Source of the DNA: Geotalea uraniireducens Rf4
Lineage (GTDB): Bacteria; Desulfobacterota; Desulfuromonadia; Geobacterales; Geobacteraceae
NCBI RefSeq assembly: GCF_000016745.1
Contig: NC_009483.1
Coordinates: 4,860,001 to 4,892,000, forward strand
DNA length: 32,000 nucleotides
Direction: 5' to 3'
The position numbers and the translations under genes were made by a program. Below, in pieces: positions 1,199-8,804 of this stretch (its first letter is position 1; each line of letters opens with the position of its first letter). The notes under the pieces are model-generated. The model was not told where the DNA came from, did no database searches, and saw nothing but the letters and a program-made list of their open reading frames with translations.

Positions 1199-1214
1199 AA
1201 AAAACCTCCGGAAA

Positions 1215-1347
1215 TCAGGTTCGAGGAACGAGGAACGAGGAACGAGGAACGAGGAACGAGGAACGAGGAACGAGGAACGAGGAACGAGGAACGAGGAACG
1301 AGGAACGAGGAACGAGGAACGAGGAACGAGGTTCGAGGTTCGAGGTT
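1215..1347. repeat. Heptanucleotide tandem array: TCAGGTT, (CGAGGAA)x15 perfect, (CGAGGTT)x3 perfect
   Basis: Counted directly. Fifteen uninterrupted CGAGGAA units span 1222-1326, three CGAGGTT units span 1327-1347, and one degenerate unit lies at 1215-1221. The array lies in the 211-bp fliP-fliQ spacer. Confidence 0.95.
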
Positions 1348-1352
1348 ATTTT

Positions 1353-1405
1353 GTCCTTTATCCTCGTTCCTTTATCCTCGTTCCTTTGTTCTCTATCCTC
1401 ATTCC
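1353..1405. repeat. Imperfect 14-nt-period arm complementary to the heptamer array (TTTATCCTCGTTCC x2 plus a decayed copy)
   Basis: CCTCGTTCC (twice) is the exact reverse complement of GGAACGAGG in the array at 1222-1326. The arm begins 5 nt after the fliP stop codon as read on the minus-strand mRNA. Confidence 0.75.
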
Positions 1406-1409
1406 TTTT

Positions 1410-2165
1410 TTATCCAAAACTCTTGACCAGTGAGCCGATGACGAGTCCCCAGCCATCCACCAGGACAAACAGGAGAATCTTAAAGGGGAGTGATATCATG
1501 ACCGGCGGCAGCATCATCATCCCCATGGACATGAGGACCGATGCCACAACCATGTCCAGCACCAGAAAGGGGATGAAAACCAGGAAACCGATCTGGAAGG
1601 CGGTCTTCAGCTCACTGACCATGTATGCCGGAATGAGGGTCAGGGTAGGAATGTCATCGGCGTTTTTCGGACGGGGGAGTTTCGAAAGGCTTAAGAACAG
1701 GGCAAGGTCTTTTTCCCTTACCTGCGAAAGCATGAATTTCCTGACCGGCGCAACAGCTCTTTTGAAAGCTTCTTCCTGGCTGATGGTCTGCGCCTTATAG
1801 GGCTGTAGAGCCTGGGTGTTGATCTGTTGCCATACGGGAGCCATGATGAAAAAGGTCAAAAACAGCGACAGACCGATGATGATCTGATTCGAAGGCGCCT
1901 GCTGCGTACCAATGGCATTTCTTAAAAATGACAGGACCACGACGATGCGCGTGAACGACGTGGTCATCATCAAGAGCCCGGGAGCGAGCGACAGAACCGT
2001 CATCAGGAAGAATATCTGGAGAACCACCGCCACATCGGCAGGCTTGGACACTTTGCCCATGCCGACGCTGACTGTTGGAAGCGCCAGTGGCTCGGCAAAA
2101 GCCGAGGCTGCGGTCAGCATGCACAACAGGATCAAGGCTGTTTTAAAGAGGGTCCCATATTTCAC
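1410..2165 (-). CDS. fliP: Flagellar export gate protein FliP
   Basis: 251 aa with a signal peptide (LLCMLTAASAFA) and canonical FliP blocks (TSFTRIVVVLSFLRNAIGTQQAPSNQ; GFLVFIPFLVLDMVVASVLMSMGMMMLPP). GTGA overlap with the fliO stop. Confidence 0.95.
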   Translation of the reverse strand: MKYGTLFKTALILLCMLTAASAFAEPLALPTVSVGMGKVSKPADVAVVLQIFFLMTVLSLAPGLLMMTTSFTRIVVVLSFLRNAIGTQQAPSNQIIIGLSLFLTFFIMAPVWQQINTQALQPYKAQTISQEEAFKRAVAPVRKFMLSQVREKDLALFLSLSKLPRPKNADDIPTLTLIPAYMVSELKTAFQIGFLVFIPFLVLDMVVASVLMSMGMMMLPPVMISLPFKILLFVLVDGWGLVIGSLVKSFG

Positions 2166-4748: not shown

Positions 4749-5633
4749 CTAGCGTTTCAGGCTCAGTATTTCCTGGGTCATTTCATCTGCAGTGGTGATG
4801 GTCTTTGAGTTTGCCGAATAGGCTCGCTGGGTGATGATCATCTTGACGAACTGGCTTGCCATGTCCACGTTGCTCTGTTCCAGGGAGTTGGAGAGGATCT
4901 TCTCACTGGTTCCGTTCGGCTGGTTTCCTGCCAGGGAAAATGCGGCAGCAGAAACCCCTGATGACGCAGTCGGCGTGTACAGCGACCCACCCGCTTTTTC
5001 AAGGCCGGTTACATCGGCAGCACTCACCACCGCCAGCCTCTGGACGGTTGCCGCATTGGCCGGTGTTGTCGCAACACCCACCCCCCCGCTGGCATTGTAG
5101 TAGTTCGTGGTGATACCATCCTGGGCAAGATAGGTGATGAGCCCGTTCGGCTCTATCTTCACGATCTTCGCGAAATCCGTGGCGGGGGCTGCGCCTGTAT
5201 TTGAAAACTGGATCGGATTCCCGGCGGTGTCCAGCACCTGGTAGCCATCTGGATTTACCATGGTCAGTGTCTTATCCACGTGGAAGGCGCCCGCCCGGCT
5301 CAGGAGGGCGGCATTCTGGGCAGCCACCGGCGCTGCGGTGGTCGGCGGTTTCAGGGCAAAAAAGCTGTTTCCCTGGATGCCCAGGTCGGTCACATTTTCC
5401 GTATTCTCATAAGACGACGAACCGAAAATATTTTCAACCTTCTGCATCTGCACCCCGCGGCCGACTTGCGAATCATTGCCGATATTAGCGGAAAGCATGT
5501 CCGAGAAGAGCGTCCTTCCGTATTTGAAACCGATGGTATTGACGTTGGATATGTTGTTGCCGATGACGTTCATGGCCTCACCGTTGTTCAAAAGGCCGCT
5601 CACGCCGGTAAACATTGCACCTGTAATACTCAT
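4749..5633 (-). CDS. flgE: Flagellar hook protein FlgE (short, Bacillus-like length)
   Basis: N-terminus MSITGAMFTGVSGLLNNGEAMNVIGNNISNVNTIGFK and C-terminus LEQSNVDMASQFVKMIITQRAYSANSK are the conserved rod/hook terminal segments. Its position after flgD supports the call. SD is AAGGAGG. Confidence 0.85.
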   Translation of the reverse strand: MSITGAMFTGVSGLLNNGEAMNVIGNNISNVNTIGFKYGRTLFSDMLSANIGNDSQVGRGVQMQKVENIFGSSSYENTENVTDLGIQGNSFFALKPPTTAAPVAAQNAALLSRAGAFHVDKTLTMVNPDGYQVLDTAGNPIQFSNTGAAPATDFAKIVKIEPNGLITYLAQDGITTNYYNASGGVGVATTPANAATVQRLAVVSAADVTGLEKAGGSLYTPTASSGVSAAAFSLAGNQPNGTSEKILSNSLEQSNVDMASQFVKMIITQRAYSANSKTITTADEMTQEILSLKR

Positions 5634-5723
5634 TTGTTGCCTCCTTGTTCTGCCTGTTTGTTGTCGAACACCTCTGTCGGTCGGTGTTCGCGGGCTTCCT
5701 CCGGGAGGTCCAGCCCTTTAAAA

Positions 5724-5769
5724 GTTCGAGGTTTGAGGTTCGAAGTTCGAAGTTCGAGGTTCGAGGTTT
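5724..5769. repeat. Heptanucleotide tandem array GTTCGAG GTTTGAG GTTCGAA GTTCGAA GTTCGAG GTTCGAG GTTT
   Basis: Read directly: 6.5 units of period 7. The unit GTTCGAG/CGAGGTT is the same as in the 1327-1347 segment of the fliP-fliQ array. Confidence 0.9.
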
Positions 5770-5781
5770 AATTGCTTTTGA

Positions 5782-5812
5782 CATCGAACATCGAACATGG
5801 AACGTCGAACAG
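5782..5812. repeat. Period-7 arm CATCGAA CATCGAA CATGGAA CGTCGAA, partly complementary to the 5724-5769 array
   Basis: TCGAAC in this arm is complementary to GTTCGA in the array. The arm sits 2 nt from the stop codon (5815-5817) of the upstream gene. Confidence 0.7.
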
Positions 5813-5814
5813 CT

Positions 5815-6204
5815 TCATTTTAGAAATACGGCGGAGTCGATGTTGGTAAAGACGTTCCCCTGCATGTGGGCCCGGTCCATGGCCGTAACCACTGTCCGGT
5901 TTTTGACACTCACCACAAAGGCTGCATCACCCAGCATGACCAGAGACTCCTTGCCCCCCTTTTGCGCGACACTGTCGACCGCCCCCGCGAGCTTTTTCAT
6001 GTCCGTTTCACTCAAGCTGATCCCCCGCGCTTTCAATCTCTCCTGAGCGTGTTGCGAAAATTTTACGGCCTGGTTCGGCAGTTTTGCTTCAAGAATCCTG
6101 GCAAAGGGTGAATCAGAACCGGCCGGCTTTTCCTGTGACGGCTTTATCGGAGTCTGACGGGTAGGCGCCTGGATCGGCTGCGGGAAAAATATGTTGTCAA
6201 CCAC
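5815..6204 (-). CDS. Small 'flagellar operon protein' (TIGR02530-like) found between flgD and flgE
   Basis: 129 aa, with FSQHAQERLKARGISLSETDMKKLAGAVD...VVSVKNRTVVTAMD resembling the conserved flgD-flgE-linked family of Firmicutes and Thermotogae. The family assignment is from memory. The start (GTG 6204) is uncertain. Confidence 0.6.
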   Translation of the reverse strand: MVDNIFFPQPIQAPTRQTPIKPSQEKPAGSDSPFARILEAKLPNQAVKFSQHAQERLKARGISLSETDMKKLAGAVDSVAQKGGKESLVMLGDAAFVVSVKNRTVVTAMDRAHMQGNVFTNIDSAVFLK

Positions 6205-6870
6205 TCACACCACCCCCTTCACGCTGAGGATGTTGGCAATCGGGACCTGCAATGCACCTATGGTCAGGCTTGGACTGGCCCCTTCCATATTGACCCCGTC
6301 GACCTTCCCTTTGATCAACGGCGTGCCGGCAAAGGTGGTGCCGTCAACATTGCCGCCGGTTACGGCAACGTTGTAAGTTCCGGCCGGTAATTGCCGACCT
6401 ATGCTGTCGGTGCCGTCCCAGGCAATAGAGCCGTCTCCCGCCGCTGTCCGGCCCTGGGTCAGGGTTTTGACCGTTGCGCCGCTTGCATCCGTGATCGAAA
6501 GCGTTACCGTTTGTGCAGCTGAAGGCAACCTGTAATTGATGACCGCTGGGCGGCCGGCCTGAAGACTGACCTGCGCCCCGGGCGCAACGACCTCCTTGCC
6601 GATGAACGATACGGCAGACAGTGTCGTCGTGTTGTTTGCCTGATTCAGCATGTCTTGCAGGTTGGAATTGGTATTATACGCCTGTTCCACCTGGGTAAGC
6701 TGGGCCAGCTGCGAAATAAACTGGGAGCTGTCCTGGGGATTCATCGGGTCCTGGTTTTGCAACTGGGTCACGAACAGCTTGAGAAAGTCATCCTTGTTCA
6801 TGCCGGTTGCCTTTTTCATTGCAGCCGCAGCCGCAGTGGAATCATTCGAAGCTGAAACTGAGTTAATCAT
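6205..6870 (-). CDS. flgD: Flagellar hook assembly/capping protein FlgD
   Basis: FLKLFVTQLQNQDPMNPQDSSQFISQLAQLTQVEQ is the FlgD signature. I place the start at ATG 6870, 8 nt after AGGAGG. The ORF-track GTG at 6879 lies inside that SD. Confidence 0.9.
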   Translation of the reverse strand: MINSVSASNDSTAAAAAMKKATGMNKDDFLKLFVTQLQNQDPMNPQDSSQFISQLAQLTQVEQAYNTNSNLQDMLNQANNTTTLSAVSFIGKEVVAPGAQVSLQAGRPAVINYRLPSAAQTVTLSITDASGATVKTLTQGRTAAGDGSIAWDGTDSIGRQLPAGTYNVAVTGGNVDGTTFAGTPLIKGKVDGVNMEGASPSLTIGALQVPIANILSVKGVV

Positions 6871-6888
6871 AACTATCACCTCCTTTTT

Positions 6889-8703
6889 TTAAAATCTCAC
6901 ATCCACTAACGAATTATTGCCTGTAGTCAGATAACTGACTCGCTGTTCCGCTCCATCATCGGTCGGTCCCGCCACGTTGGTAAAGTTTTTATGAGACTGA
7001 TTCCGGGGCACCCATTTTTCATCCCCGAACGACTGGTTGAAACCATGCCCGACGCCGGTCTGGACATCGAATTTGTCCATGGTCAGATTCTGCTTCAACA
7101 AGGTCTCCTTGAGGCTGTCCAGGTTACCCATGAGGGCATCTTTCACCATCCGGTTTTCCGCCACGATTTCAACTTTTAGCCGCTGATCCACCATGCTGAC
7201 GTTGATTTTCAGCTCCCCCAGTTCAGCCGGCTTTAGGGAAATGGTAATCTGGTTGCGTCCCTTTGCATCGTGGGTAGCCATACCGTCTTTTACCTGGGCA
7301 AGGATGCTTTCCGACAACGCAGTTTTTGTCCCTTCCGTTTTTGGCTGAGGCTCGGGGACGGAAAAGTTCTTCGGAACATCGGTAACTGCTCCGTTATGAA
7401 GGGTCCCCGGCATTTTTTCATTCATGCCGGATCTGCTGCTGTTCTCCCCGTCAAAAAACTCTTTACGGGAAGACGGTTCCTGAAAAACGACTTCTACCTT
7501 GGCAGTGTCAGGCGTCGTGGCAATGGAGTCCGCACTTTTCGCCTCGGACGATTCAGCTACCCCGTGCAGATGCTGGTTGGTCTCGTAACGCACCTGGTGG
7601 ACGGCTTTTTCCTGGGCCGACTTTGCGATGACAACGGGATCAGACGGGGACTGTGCTGGCGATTGCTGCTGGTTGGTCTCGGGCTGCGTCGTCACCAAAG
7701 GTTCGGTAATTACCGGTATTTGAACTTCACCGGCATTGTTCCCGGAACCTTGAAGAGCGGAAGCTGCTTGCGCCGGAGTTGCTGTCAGTGGCGGTTGTGA
7801 AGGGACAGTTTGTCCGGCTGCATTGACATTAACCTGTTGCGGAGAGGAGGTTTCGGGAGCTTTTGCAACAAATTGAACCGTTTCCGGAAAAACCGTATGG
7901 CTACTTGATTGGGGAAGCGGTTTTGCATCGCCGGCTACGGGTTCGCCAGGCTGGGCAGCTGCATTTTCGGCCTTCGACATAATGGCAGCTGTAACGTCTG
8001 GTTTTGCCGGGGGATGAAAGGTGTCCGGTAATTCATGGTTGTCTGCCCGCGGAGGCAGCTTCGGAGCAACCATGACCGGTTGGGCAGCAGAGGCAGGCTG
8101 CTCAGCTGCCGGCGCGGGATTTGACTGCTGTAGCACGATATCGACGGGCGACGCATCCTTGCTTGCCATTGACGGTTGCGGAATTAACGGTGTCGGTTTT
8201 GCAGCAGGAAGGACACTGTCAGGCAACACCACCTCTTCTTCGGTTTTAACAACGCCGCCTTGCTGTTGAGCAACCGTTGCCGCGGGATTAAGCCCTTCTG
8301 CAACAGCCGTCGTTCCCACCGATTCCGTTTGTGCAGCCATATCCTGCATCTGGCTTGGCAGGATTGACGCCATGGCCATCGGCATCCCATTGGCCGCAAT
8401 CATCATGGGTAAAGGGAGTTCATTGGTTGCGGATGATGATTCTTCCGTCTCCGATTCCTTTTTCCCGGGCTTCACAGCAACTGTCGCCTCTTCCGGTACT
8501 GCCGGCATACCGCTTTTGCCGACAAGCTCCTCCATCGCCATGCCCGGTGGGGATGACGACGCCATCTCCCGCAACAGTGCGGCAAATGCGCTGCTGCCTG
8601 ATGGAGTCCGCACCGGGACATGCCCCGTTTTGTCAGAAGTCATCAGGCCTGCACCGGGAAGCGCGGGGGGGAGCGACTGCGGAATGATTTGCATTATTTC
8701 CAT
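6889..8703 (-). CDS. fliK: Flagellar hook-length control protein FliK
   Basis: Long Pro/Ala/Gln-rich low-complexity body plus a C-terminal Flg_hook-type domain (ITISLKPAELGELKINVSMVDQRLKVEIVAENRMVKDAL). I set the start at ATG 8703 after AAGGAGGTG. Confidence 0.8.
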   Translation of the reverse strand: MEIMQIIPQSLPPALPGAGLMTSDKTGHVPVRTPSGSSAFAALLREMASSSPPGMAMEELVGKSGMPAVPEEATVAVKPGKKESETEESSSATNELPLPMMIAANGMPMAMASILPSQMQDMAAQTESVGTTAVAEGLNPAATVAQQQGGVVKTEEEVVLPDSVLPAAKPTPLIPQPSMASKDASPVDIVLQQSNPAPAAEQPASAAQPVMVAPKLPPRADNHELPDTFHPPAKPDVTAAIMSKAENAAAQPGEPVAGDAKPLPQSSSHTVFPETVQFVAKAPETSSPQQVNVNAAGQTVPSQPPLTATPAQAASALQGSGNNAGEVQIPVITEPLVTTQPETNQQQSPAQSPSDPVVIAKSAQEKAVHQVRYETNQHLHGVAESSEAKSADSIATTPDTAKVEVVFQEPSSRKEFFDGENSSRSGMNEKMPGTLHNGAVTDVPKNFSVPEPQPKTEGTKTALSESILAQVKDGMATHDAKGRNQITISLKPAELGELKINVSMVDQRLKVEIVAENRMVKDALMGNLDSLKETLLKQNLTMDKFDVQTGVGHGFNQSFGDEKWVPRNQSHKNFTNVAGPTDDGAEQRVSYLTTGNNSLVDVRF

Positions 8704-8804
8704 TGTTTTCACCTCCTTTCTCTGTGGGATGGGTCGAGGTTATAATCCCCCGACATAACTCTATGAGCGGCACCCGACTGCCGGAGTGCGCGGTTTATCC
8801 TTCA

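Follow-up and report, generated by a model that had tools for sequence, protein, structure and literature searches.

Heptamer arrays and a candidate leader RNA in the spacer upstream of flgE in Geotalea uraniireducens

What is a pair of facing tandem repeats doing between two genes of a flagellar operon? The question is raised by a spacer in Geotalea uraniireducens Rf4, found within a 32,000-nucleotide stretch of the genome (NC_009483.1, positions 4,860,001 to 4,892,000), which will be called the window and whose first letter is position 1 in what follows. Here the flagellar genes are read from the minus strand, according to the list of open reading frames (ORFs) and to Pfam, and the spacer lies just upstream of a gene for a FlgE-like short hook protein. 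A first-pass annotation, made from the letters alone, noted here two arrays of 7-nt units facing each other across a gap. Having met a similar arrangement in the spacer between fliP and fliQ, it took the two as independent occurrences of one functional design, placed where stoichiometry changes sharply, as it does before the abundant hook protein. In our reading, the hairpin that the arms could form is no conserved regulator dedicated to the stoichiometry of the hook. Probably, we think, the arrays are a repeat module prone to slippage and recombination, largely a passenger and present here in a gene-less form, which would form an RNA hairpin in this strain, and the leader RNA adjacent to it is the better candidate for a regulatory element.

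The arrays themselves are as first described, down to the letter: on the plus strand, units of the GTTCGAG type, an AT-rich gap of 12 nt, and then units of the CATCGAA type (Table 1). On the mRNA, the order is UGA (the stop codon of the upstream gene), AGCU, a GT-rich arm that begins a few nt after the stop, the loop UCAAAAGCAAUU, the AC-rich arm AAACCUCGAACCUCGAACUUCGAACUUCGAACCUCAAACCUCGAAC, UUUUAAA, a 58-nt segment with two hairpins, the Shine-Dalgarno sequence AAGGAGG, and finally AUG. The proposed layout of stop codon, short arm, AU-rich loop, and longer array is therefore present, and so is the proposed pairing in several registers: the arms make up a 30-nt inverted repeat, 80-83% complementary, that can align in at least three registers, leaving loops of 13, 20, or 27 nt. 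One identification needed correction. The gene whose stop codon precedes the arms was supposed to be flgD, whereas the actual neighbor is a 129-aa member of PF12611 situated between flgD and the FlgE-like gene. Between the PF12611 gene and flgE lie 181 nt (5634-5814), and fliL, fliM, fliO, fliP, fliQ, and fliR are found further downstream. The spacer alone has a predicted minimum free energy (MFE) of -27.8 kcal/mol (z = -4.2), and the 187-nt intergenic RNA has one of -57.2 kcal/mol (z = -3.2), with none of 200 shuffled sequences as good. A chance origin of the arrays is ruled out by Tandem Repeats Finder (TRF), by the shuffled sequences, and by the genome-wide excess of arrays with period 7.

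That excess was found by running TRF on the whole genome, a single contig of 5,136,364 bp with 54% G+C. Counting arrays of at least four copies, there are 242 of period 7, compared to 21 of period 6, 5 of period 8, and 25 of period 9. The 242 arrays merge into 180 loci. The unit CGAGGTT, which was correctly said to be identical in the flgE array and in positions 1327-1347 of the fliP-fliQ array, is (as AACCTCG) the commonest heptamer unit of the genome, accounting for 29 arrays. Genes were called by a crude codon-usage model of ORFs, one that reproduces the genes of the window, and by this measure the arrays are mostly non-coding (76% of arrays, against 16% of the genome). Their placement among spacers is far from even. 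The 136 intergenic loci comprise 109 with co-directional neighbors, 19 with convergent ones, and 8 with divergent ones, while the lengths of the three kinds of spacers would lead one to expect 62%, 14%, and 24%, respectively. The excess of co-directional loci (p = 8e-6) bears out the enrichment at intra-operon junctions that had been suggested as a genome-wide check, and it is accompanied by a deficit of divergent loci (p = 5e-8).

Within co-directional spacers, the median distance is 7 nt from the upstream stop to the beginning of the array and 38 nt from its end to the next start. For about half of all arrays, a complementary arm lies no more than 120 nt away (120 cases, versus 2 in a control with random flanks), and the same layout recurs on the transcript: a stop codon, a GT-rich or G-rich array, a short loop rich in A and T, an AC-rich complement, and a Shine-Dalgarno sequence with ATG. 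The unit of the 5' array differs from locus to locus, the types including GTTCNNN, GAGGANN, GGTCGGN, GTGAGNA, and CTGGGAA. Where two arrays were called at a locus, the G-rich array precedes the C-rich one in 23 cases and follows it in 1, and the 5' arm is GT-rich in 39 loci versus 8. The flgE locus matches the layout of the family exactly.

The flgE and fliP-fliQ arrays thus belong to one real family, placed at intra-operon junctions, and the flgE array is no peculiarity of the flagellar operon. The genome's 5.14 Mb hold 180 loci, a density at which a 32-kb stretch should contain 1.12 of them and would contain two or more with a probability of 0.31. No special meaning therefore attaches to the pair found in the flagellar operon. 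Enrichment specific to the flagellum is ruled out by the same expectation. Of the functional element family proposed in the first-pass annotation, then, the family and its recurrent layout stand. The notion of a design belonging to the flagellar operon does not, and the argument from two independent occurrences falls with it. The suggested link to junctions where stoichiometry changes also finds no support, as the family numbers 180 loci over the genome and the operon holds no more of them than expected.

The order of the arms should not be read as proof of the direction of transcription. An arrangement of the form X, loop, reverse complement of X reads alike on both strands, and therefore the placement of the GT-rich arm first shows the type of palindrome, not the direction in which it is transcribed. 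For single arms, sense strand and G-rich strand coincide in 44 cases versus 13 (p = 5e-5), at a median of 5 nt after the stop, but this bias is confounded with a bias toward the leading strand (42 versus 15), and the 12 head-on cases, divided 7 to 5, do not separate the two.

What might such an element do? One answer is that it acts as an intercistronic RNA hairpin, similar to repetitive extragenic palindromic sequences (REPs), to the bacterial interspersed mosaic elements (BIMEs) they form, or to intervening sequences (IVSs). Cleavage of the stem by RNase III, or a block to 3' exonucleases, would uncouple the stability and translation of flgE from those of the preceding genes and so set the stoichiometry of the hook, with the length of the array tuning the effect. 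The predicted hairpin is indeed significantly stable according to shuffle tests, and the family occupies transcribed, co-directional spacers while avoiding the divergent ones where promoters would lie. The stem stands a few nt past the stop, where a terminating ribosome would melt it. Cleavage would leave flgE mRNA starting just upstream of a conserved two-hairpin leader. Also, the same arms enclose genes of PF05635, a family named for the ORFs within 23S rRNA intervening sequences. It is the comparison with related genomes that goes against this explanation.

About 90 spacers upstream of flgE were compared across the order. Their most common state is a spacer of 10-25 nt running from the stop of the PF12611 gene to the conserved leader. 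About 25 of the ~90 carry period-7 arrays, built from many different units, and only in a handful are the arms complementary (the window, L004, L034/L056, and in part L017 and L025). In L032, L059, and L062, a GT-rich or purine-rich array is followed by an AC-rich array with which it is unable to pair, and non-complementary combinations of this kind, unhelpful to the idea of an RNA hairpin, occur in many related spacers. Within Geotalea, where the closest named relatives at the locus are Geotalea sp. SG265 and G. toluenoxydans, an NNNGAAC array of 3-9 units adjoins the leader in every sequence. The 5' arm, however, is found only in the window, apart from a two-unit remnant in L017, and it was not seen in L104, L001, L002, or L049. 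The predicted MFE of the spacer is -27.8 kcal/mol in the window, -12.3 in L017, and -8.1, -5.8, and 0 in congeners, and the paired-arm layout is missing from three of the four congeneric sequences. The first-pass annotation had named beforehand, as the outcome that would refute it, a lack of conservation in any relative. What one finds is an array at this site throughout the genus and in several other genera, but a paired-arm layout that has not been kept.

The same conclusion is reached at much closer range with a metagenome contig, Ga0074193_1001391 (L104), which over about 8 kb matches the window at 99.4-99.5% identity. Only the two heptamer arrays interrupt the BLAST alignment of these sequences, giving it exactly two breaks. 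Window positions 5733-5827 are replaced in L104 by a flgE spacer of 25 nt, TAG ACAAC GTAGAAC ATAGAAC ATAGAAC, with three NTAGAAC units and no 5' arm. At the second break (L104 6680-6830, window 1199-1412, in the fliP-fliQ spacer), about ten copies of CCTAGAA stand instead of the 16 copies of UUCCUCG, while the GAGGA-type arm is unchanged. The array now being of the CCTAGAA type and the arm of the old GAGGA type, the arms no longer pair. Both flagellar arrays are of the TCG type in this genome and of the TAG type in L104. Concerted switching of unit type at flagellar arrays is hinted at here.

The replacement extends to protein. The C-terminus of the PF12611 protein (window 5818-5832, L104 2326-2347) reads SAVFLK* in the window and in L017, SAVII* in L104, and something like AVIF* in congeners. 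Since the last codons differ between sequences that are 99.5% identical, the array block has rewritten the C-terminus of the upstream protein. L017 presents the converse case. It is about 80% identical to the window across the locus but 90-98% identical in 5430-6030, and it carries the window's block with the same junctions, differing by indels of 22 nt and 7 nt. A block that is present in an ~80%-identical sequence and absent from a 99.5%-identical one has been inherited discordantly with its flanks. This indicates that some form of recombination, or else replacement or mobility of the block, would be acting besides the slippage of units.

Nor do the arms show the marks of a stem maintained as RNA. 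At 62 paired loci, oriented by transcription, mismatches of the G·U type in the sense RNA number 62, while those of the type available to the antisense strand only (A·C type) number 52, so there is no excess. Among 22 paired loci of the GAAC type, complementarity is 0.87 within a locus and 0.86 between loci (p = 0.24). As there is no complementarity specific to a locus, the capacity to pair stems from the GTTC/GAAC core and not from upkeep of the stem locus by locus. Comparisons of this kind argue that pairing of the hairpin is probably not what selection maintains in the heptamer class. A stem that is absent from three of four congeners and from a 99.5%-identical contig, whose counterpart between fliP and fliQ has mismatched arms in that contig, and which bears neither of the two signatures just described, makes an unlikely regulator, and the explanation by an intercistronic RNA hairpin must be considered unlikely as well.

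Perhaps the arrays act instead at the level of DNA, with convergent GTTC words phased at 7 bp binding a nucleoid-associated or other protein, or with the arms forming a cruciform or other non-B DNA. This would suit the conserved 4-nt core (GTTC/GAAC) with its three variable positions, as well as a strand-symmetric arrangement that puts the GT-rich arm 5' on both strands. It would also suit complementarity that belongs to the family and not to individual loci, and the lack of a sense-strand RNA signature. GAAC-phased arrays are abundant in 47 of the 101 genomes of the order, while a reversed-pattern control is near zero in most of them. They were found in all sampled genomes of four genera and in none of the 8 sampled genomes of the genus of G. 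metallireducens. A proposal of binding by integration host factor (IHF) or HU has been published for paired sites in the latter organism (PMC2700814). However, no candidate protein presents itself here, and with a phasing of 7 bp, neighboring sites do not share a face of the B-DNA helix. For a regulator of transcription, scarcity in divergent promoter regions would be odd, and both copy number and unit type vary between strains. Finally, unrelated units (GGTCGGN, GAGGAAC, CTGGGAA, and GTGAGAA) obey equal positional rules, which argues against a single binder. A function at the level of DNA therefore seems quite improbable.

A different kind of clue comes from genes that the arrays enclose. Six genes of the genome score above the family cut-off of PF05635, and four of the six, wedged among ordinary genes, are bracketed by a GT-rich and an AC-rich array (Table 1). 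The one at 3775230-3775535 shows the arrangement: TAA, AACC, GTTCGAA GTTCGAC GTTCGAA, the PF05635 gene, TTCGAAC CTCGAAC CTCGAAC ATCGAAC, and the Shine-Dalgarno sequence of the next gene. The flgE spacer has arms of just these types (GTTCGAN and NTCGAAC), and in it only a loop of 12-13 nt, and no gene, lies between them. Judged by sequence, the flgE element may be a gene-less form of the PF05635 arm module. The association between GAAC arrays and PF05635 is local, without tight coupling across the order. Tight coupling was rejected on the counts, 47 genomes of 101 having the arrays and 72 of 101 having PF05635.

Two further arrangements were noted. A PF05635 gene at G000:C1 991300-992150 has flanking arrays of period 9, with TTATGAGTT/ACATGAGTT upstream and CCCATAGAA downstream, that are mutually non-complementary. 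In L030 (1042-1458), from one genome of the order, a 138-aa ORF with a GxxExxY motif (GFLEKVY) lies exactly between the PF12611 stop and the flgE leader, with phased CGTGTAnATTCGTG motifs after it. A spacer occupied by heptamer arrays in other genomes thus holds a gene cassette in L030.

One might go further and suppose that a cassette system, so far undescribed, works through the heptamer arms, with a trans-acting factor, such as the Avd-like proteins of PF05635, that recognizes or makes arrays of GUUC/GAAC-phased units. In that event, gene-less hairpins would be exchangeable modules for intercistronic processing or insulation, the one considered here would be followed directly by a flgE leader RNA conserved over the order and not catalogued before, and swaps of blocks from strain to strain would tune the output of hook protein. 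The switch between TCG-type and TAG-type units at both flagellar arrays fits such a system, as does the discordance between the phylogeny of the block and that of its flanks. Both would then reflect an active mechanism, templated or recombinational, rather than simple slippage. As an explanation of the locus this must be counted a long shot.

Finally, the AC-rich, G-poor NNNGAAC tract might be the useful part, serving as a ribosome standby site or a site of Rho loading (similar to rut sites) that the 5' arm optionally masks until terminating ribosomes open it. All Geotalea sequences hold the array by the leader, with or without the 5' arm, as do sequences from other families, the NNNGAAC arrays are predicted to be unstructured (MFE 0 to -8), and throughout the genome the side toward the downstream start is taken by C/A-rich arms and that toward the stop by G-rich ones, much like the rule given by Rehm et al. 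(PMC4692102). However, about two thirds of the order's flgE spacers have no array and measure only 10-25 nt, the array lies ~75-85 nt from the Shine-Dalgarno sequence with a structured leader between, and the sense bias of single arms is inseparable from their leading-strand bias, so that a role of this sort is very improbable.

It remains to spell out the passenger module that we consider probable. Its GT-rich array (GTTCNNN) would adjoin a stop codon, its AC-rich array (NNNGAAC) would precede the next gene, and a short loop would separate the two. The module would belong to the heptameric long simple-sequence repeats, similar to the short tandemly repeated repetitive (STRR) sequences, that occupy intercistronic and 3'-proximal spacers. 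The comparisons above display two ways in which such a module changes: by the gain or loss of whole units, as in the slippage-type indels of 7 and 22 nt, and by the swap of whole blocks or unit types among near-identical strains. On the mRNA, pairing of the arms would give, a few nt past the stop, a stem of ~28 bp with imperfections (-28 kcal/mol). The stem would at most be a passive, strain-specific modifier, perhaps a barrier at the 3' end or a double-strand processing site, standing between the upstream cistrons and flgE, and it would be tolerated because the spacer is permissive.

Some considerations weigh against so passive a role. The strict positional rules (adjacency to stops, avoidance of divergent spacers, GT-then-AC polarity) hint at selection or at a directed mechanism. 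The NNNGAAC array persists beside the leader throughout the genus and recurs in other families, and the AC-rich tract could be useful. In this strain, the hairpin may have some effect on flgE. Also, derivation may have run either way: the element may be what is left of a cassette after the loss of its gene, or an array of a kind that now and then takes up a gene.

The candidate for a conserved regulator at this junction is the two-hairpin leader that follows the arrays. The first-pass annotation had noticed a part of it, an 8-bp hairpin (CGAACACC/GGTGTTCG, at 5665-5672 and 5683-5690), which is present and turns out to belong to a leader of 58 nt. Its first hairpin, P1, has the form GGGCUGG-ACCUCC-nn-GAGG-AAGCCC, and the second, P2, has a stem of 7-8 bp and a conserved loop, GACCGAnnGA. 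In an alignment of 25 loci, 95% of the cells pair, versus 41-54% when the partners are slid. In eight pairs both partners have changed, and P2, which has eight pairs in all, accounts for six of these. None of 500 shuffles matched this result, and RNAalifold independently predicts the same structure. A covariance model of the leader, R1, has a single match in its own genome (78 bits). It matches 78 of the 101 genomes of the order, one or two times per genome, whereas a sample of ~135 genomes from elsewhere in the phylum gave one strong match and two marginal ones. The matches that were inspected all lie directly upstream of a FlgE-like ORF, and these include second copies before flgE paralogues.

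The leader is a candidate cis-acting regulatory RNA for flgE and is apparently uncatalogued. Searching Rfam with the leader and the arrays at E <= 10 gave only two microRNA models (E = 0.85 and 7.5), far under their gathering scores, and literature searches for a Geobacter flgE leader motif found no description. Unpaired GGA motifs are invariant in the leader, and csrA and fliW lie as a pair at G000 4754101-4754753; binding of CsrA to the leader is offered as a conjecture. Through the leader, conserved as it is across an order of metal-reducing bacteria, control of hook synthesis after transcription could become testable. In L028 (G084:C119, ~2598-2612), where a second flgE paralogue has the leader before it, the leader is immediately preceded by TGCAAATTTTGCATC, which resembles the -12 element of sigma-54 promoters, a hint that the leader may be able to sit at the extreme 5' end of a transcript.

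Other signals were sought around the leader. A consensus scan of the minus strand over 5300-6300 found no intrinsic terminator, and measured against the criteria for one, the array stem is long and mismatched, has a loop of at least 13 nt, and is followed by UUUU only. No sigma-70 promoter was found in the spacer by consensus scan, and no match to sigma-54 or sigma-28 promoters was apparent in the leader to the eye. Masking of the flgE Shine-Dalgarno sequence by CCUC units was also considered. The MFE structure has only a long-range helix of 4 bp to offer, and the TAGAAC units of relatives lack CCUC, so masking was rejected as a conserved mechanism.

Table 1. Features of the flgE spacer, its surroundings, and related loci. 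Positions are those of the window, except for positions marked G000:C1, which are genome coordinates.
Feature	Position	Strand	Sequence or basis
fliK	6889-8712	minus	
flgD	6205-6879	minus	
PF12611 "putative flagellar" gene, 129 aa	5815-6204	minus	ORF list; Pfam PF12611, E = 3.9e-14
Stop codon TGA of PF12611 gene	5817-5815	minus	plus strand TCA at 5815-5817
5' arm (mRNA), GT-rich, ~4 units: GUUCGAC GUUCCAU GUUCGAU GUUCGAU GU	5782-5812	minus	sequence, inverted repeat; plus strand CATCGAA CATCGAA CATGGAA CGTCGAA CAG; TRF 5781-5811, period 7, 4.4 copies, score 48
AU-rich loop between arms, 12 nt, UCAAAAGCAAUU	5770-5781	minus	sequence; unpaired in MFE structure; plus strand AATTGCTTTTGA
3' arm (mRNA), AAACCUCGAACCUCGAACUUCGAACUUCGAACCUCAAACCUCGAAC, AC-rich NNUCGAAC array, ~6.5 units	5724-5769	minus	plus strand GTTCGAG GTTTGAG GTTCGAA GTTCGAA GTTCGAG GTTCGAG GTTT; TRF 5724-5768, period 7, 6.4 copies, 89% matches, score 69
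UUUU tract at junction of array and leader	5720-5723	minus	also after the array in L017, L002, L049, L001, L079, L095, L096
Conserved two-hairpin flgE leader (model R1), 58 nt	5662-5719	minus	alignment, covariation, RNAalifold
Leader hairpin P1, GGGCUGGACCUCCCGGAGGAAGCCC	5716-5692	minus	
Leader hairpin P2, CGAACACC-GACCGACAGA-GGUGUUCG	5690-5665	minus	the 8-bp hairpin of the first-pass annotation
Shine-Dalgarno sequence AAGGAGG of flgE	5640-5646	minus	GGAG invariant in leader alignment
flgE start codon ATG	5633-5631	minus	
FlgE-like short hook protein gene, 294 aa	4749-5633	minus	Pfam Flg_bb_rod, LlgE_F_G_D1, Flg_bbr_C
Sister locus in fliP-fliQ spacer: purine-rich GAGGA-type arm, then CCUCGAA x3, UUCCUCG x16	1222-1406	minus	TRF 1222-1345, 1350-1406
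PF05635 genes with heptamer brackets, wedged among ordinary genes	G000:C1 3775230-3775535, 4470923-4471231, 1969421-1969735, 4467622-4467933		

The genome has another set of repeats that should be kept apart from the heptamers. About 8-9 genes encode Y1 transposases (PF01797) of ~315-340 aa, for example those at G000:C1 1123525-1124490, 945580-946524, 3503223-3504173, and 4259729-4260679, and several of them are flanked by GGGGTCAG upstream and CTGACCCC downstream. The GGGGTCAG/CTGACCCC repeats are a separate system, perhaps similar to that of the REP-associated tyrosine transposases (RAYTs), and unrelated to the heptamer arrays.

How does the flgE array compare to known systems? The STRR sequences of heterocystous cyanobacteria, as in Calothrix PCC 7601, are said to form some 100 or more dispersed intergenic arrays of heptanucleotides, with several families of units per genome. 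They are alike in being tandem heptanucleotide arrays and differ in coming from another phylum. To our knowledge, neither rules of stop-codon adjacency and arm polarity nor an association with cargo genes forms part of their description. The unit of L025, GGGACTG, is a rotation of the complement of the STRR1 unit, CCCCAGT.

REPs and BIMEs, which go together with RAYT (Y1) transposases in enterobacteria and pseudomonads, number in the hundreds per genome as short palindromes in transcribed spacers near stops. As RNA hairpins they can stabilize upstream mRNA, and they vary between strains. A REP, however, is a single imperfect palindrome of ~20-40 nt, while the element described here consists of tandem 7-nt units in variable copy number. 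Membership in the REP/RAYT class was rejected on the grounds that the unit is not a single palindrome and that none of the 14 matches to Y1_Tnp (PF01797) in the genome has a heptamer locus within 2.5 kb.

The ORF-bearing IVSs of 23S rRNA (S23p, PF05635) are excised by RNase III at a long stem. The resemblance is that the ends of the segment form the stem and that the segment may carry a small PF05635 gene for a four-helix bundle. Here, the same types of arms enclose PF05635 genes within ordinary operons rather than in rRNA, and the flgE copy, unlike an IVS, lies in an mRNA spacer and contains no gene.

A close parallel in positional rules is provided by the heptamers of Xanthomonas and Nostoc (GGGAATC and GGGGAYT; Rehm et al. 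2015, PMC4692102, where the STRR sequences are cited as well). These too are 7-nt units in tandem at many dispersed intergenic loci. They too prefer spacers that separate co-oriented ORFs and occur less often than expected in divergent spacers and in coding sequence. The G-rich array on the sense strand is found within 50 bp of the stop or overlapping it, the complement is found near the next start, and some convergent inverted pairs are capable of forming stem-loops. The units here (GTTCGAN / NNTCGAAC) differ in lacking G-tracts and so cannot form the G-quadruplexes that were the focus of that study. Also, inverted pairs involve about half of the arrays here but are rare in Xanthomonas and Nostoc, and this genome, unlike theirs, has many families of units at once.

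Nearer at hand, Aklujkar et al. (2009; PMC2700814) described in G. metallireducens paired sites with tandem heptanucleotides or octanucleotides on opposite strands, one of them between proB and proA, and guessed that IHF or HU might bind to them. Those sites share with ours the bacterial family, the variable distance between partners, the intergenic placement (within operons included), and a description from sequence only. They have other unit sequences, and no turnover in copy number, adjacency to stop codons, or cargo genes was reported for them. The TAACTGA direct repeats of marine Beggiatoaceae, for which MacGregor (2015; PMC4679880) proposed a regulatory role, are also abundant intergenic heptanucleotides with strong rules of orientation to neighboring genes. 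They have a single unit, however, lie mainly just upstream of starts in one orientation, and almost never form inverted pairs. The same paper summarizes heptanucleotides as the most abundant long simple-sequence repeats in many genomes, arising possibly through polymerase slippage.

The flgE locus has the features of this class of heptameric long simple-sequence repeats: a 7-nt tandem array in a genome with an excess of period 7, intergenic placement between co-oriented genes, the G-rich strand as sense near a stop (confounded, as noted, with the leading strand), and polymorphism in the number of units. To what is known of the class it adds near-identical genomes that differ only at the arrays, which is evidence against selection for a stem, and a compositional polarity, GT-rich after the stop and AC-rich before the start, that is more general than pairing. 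The flgE array is a further copy of a class of repeats known from cyanobacteria, Xanthomonas, and Geobacter.

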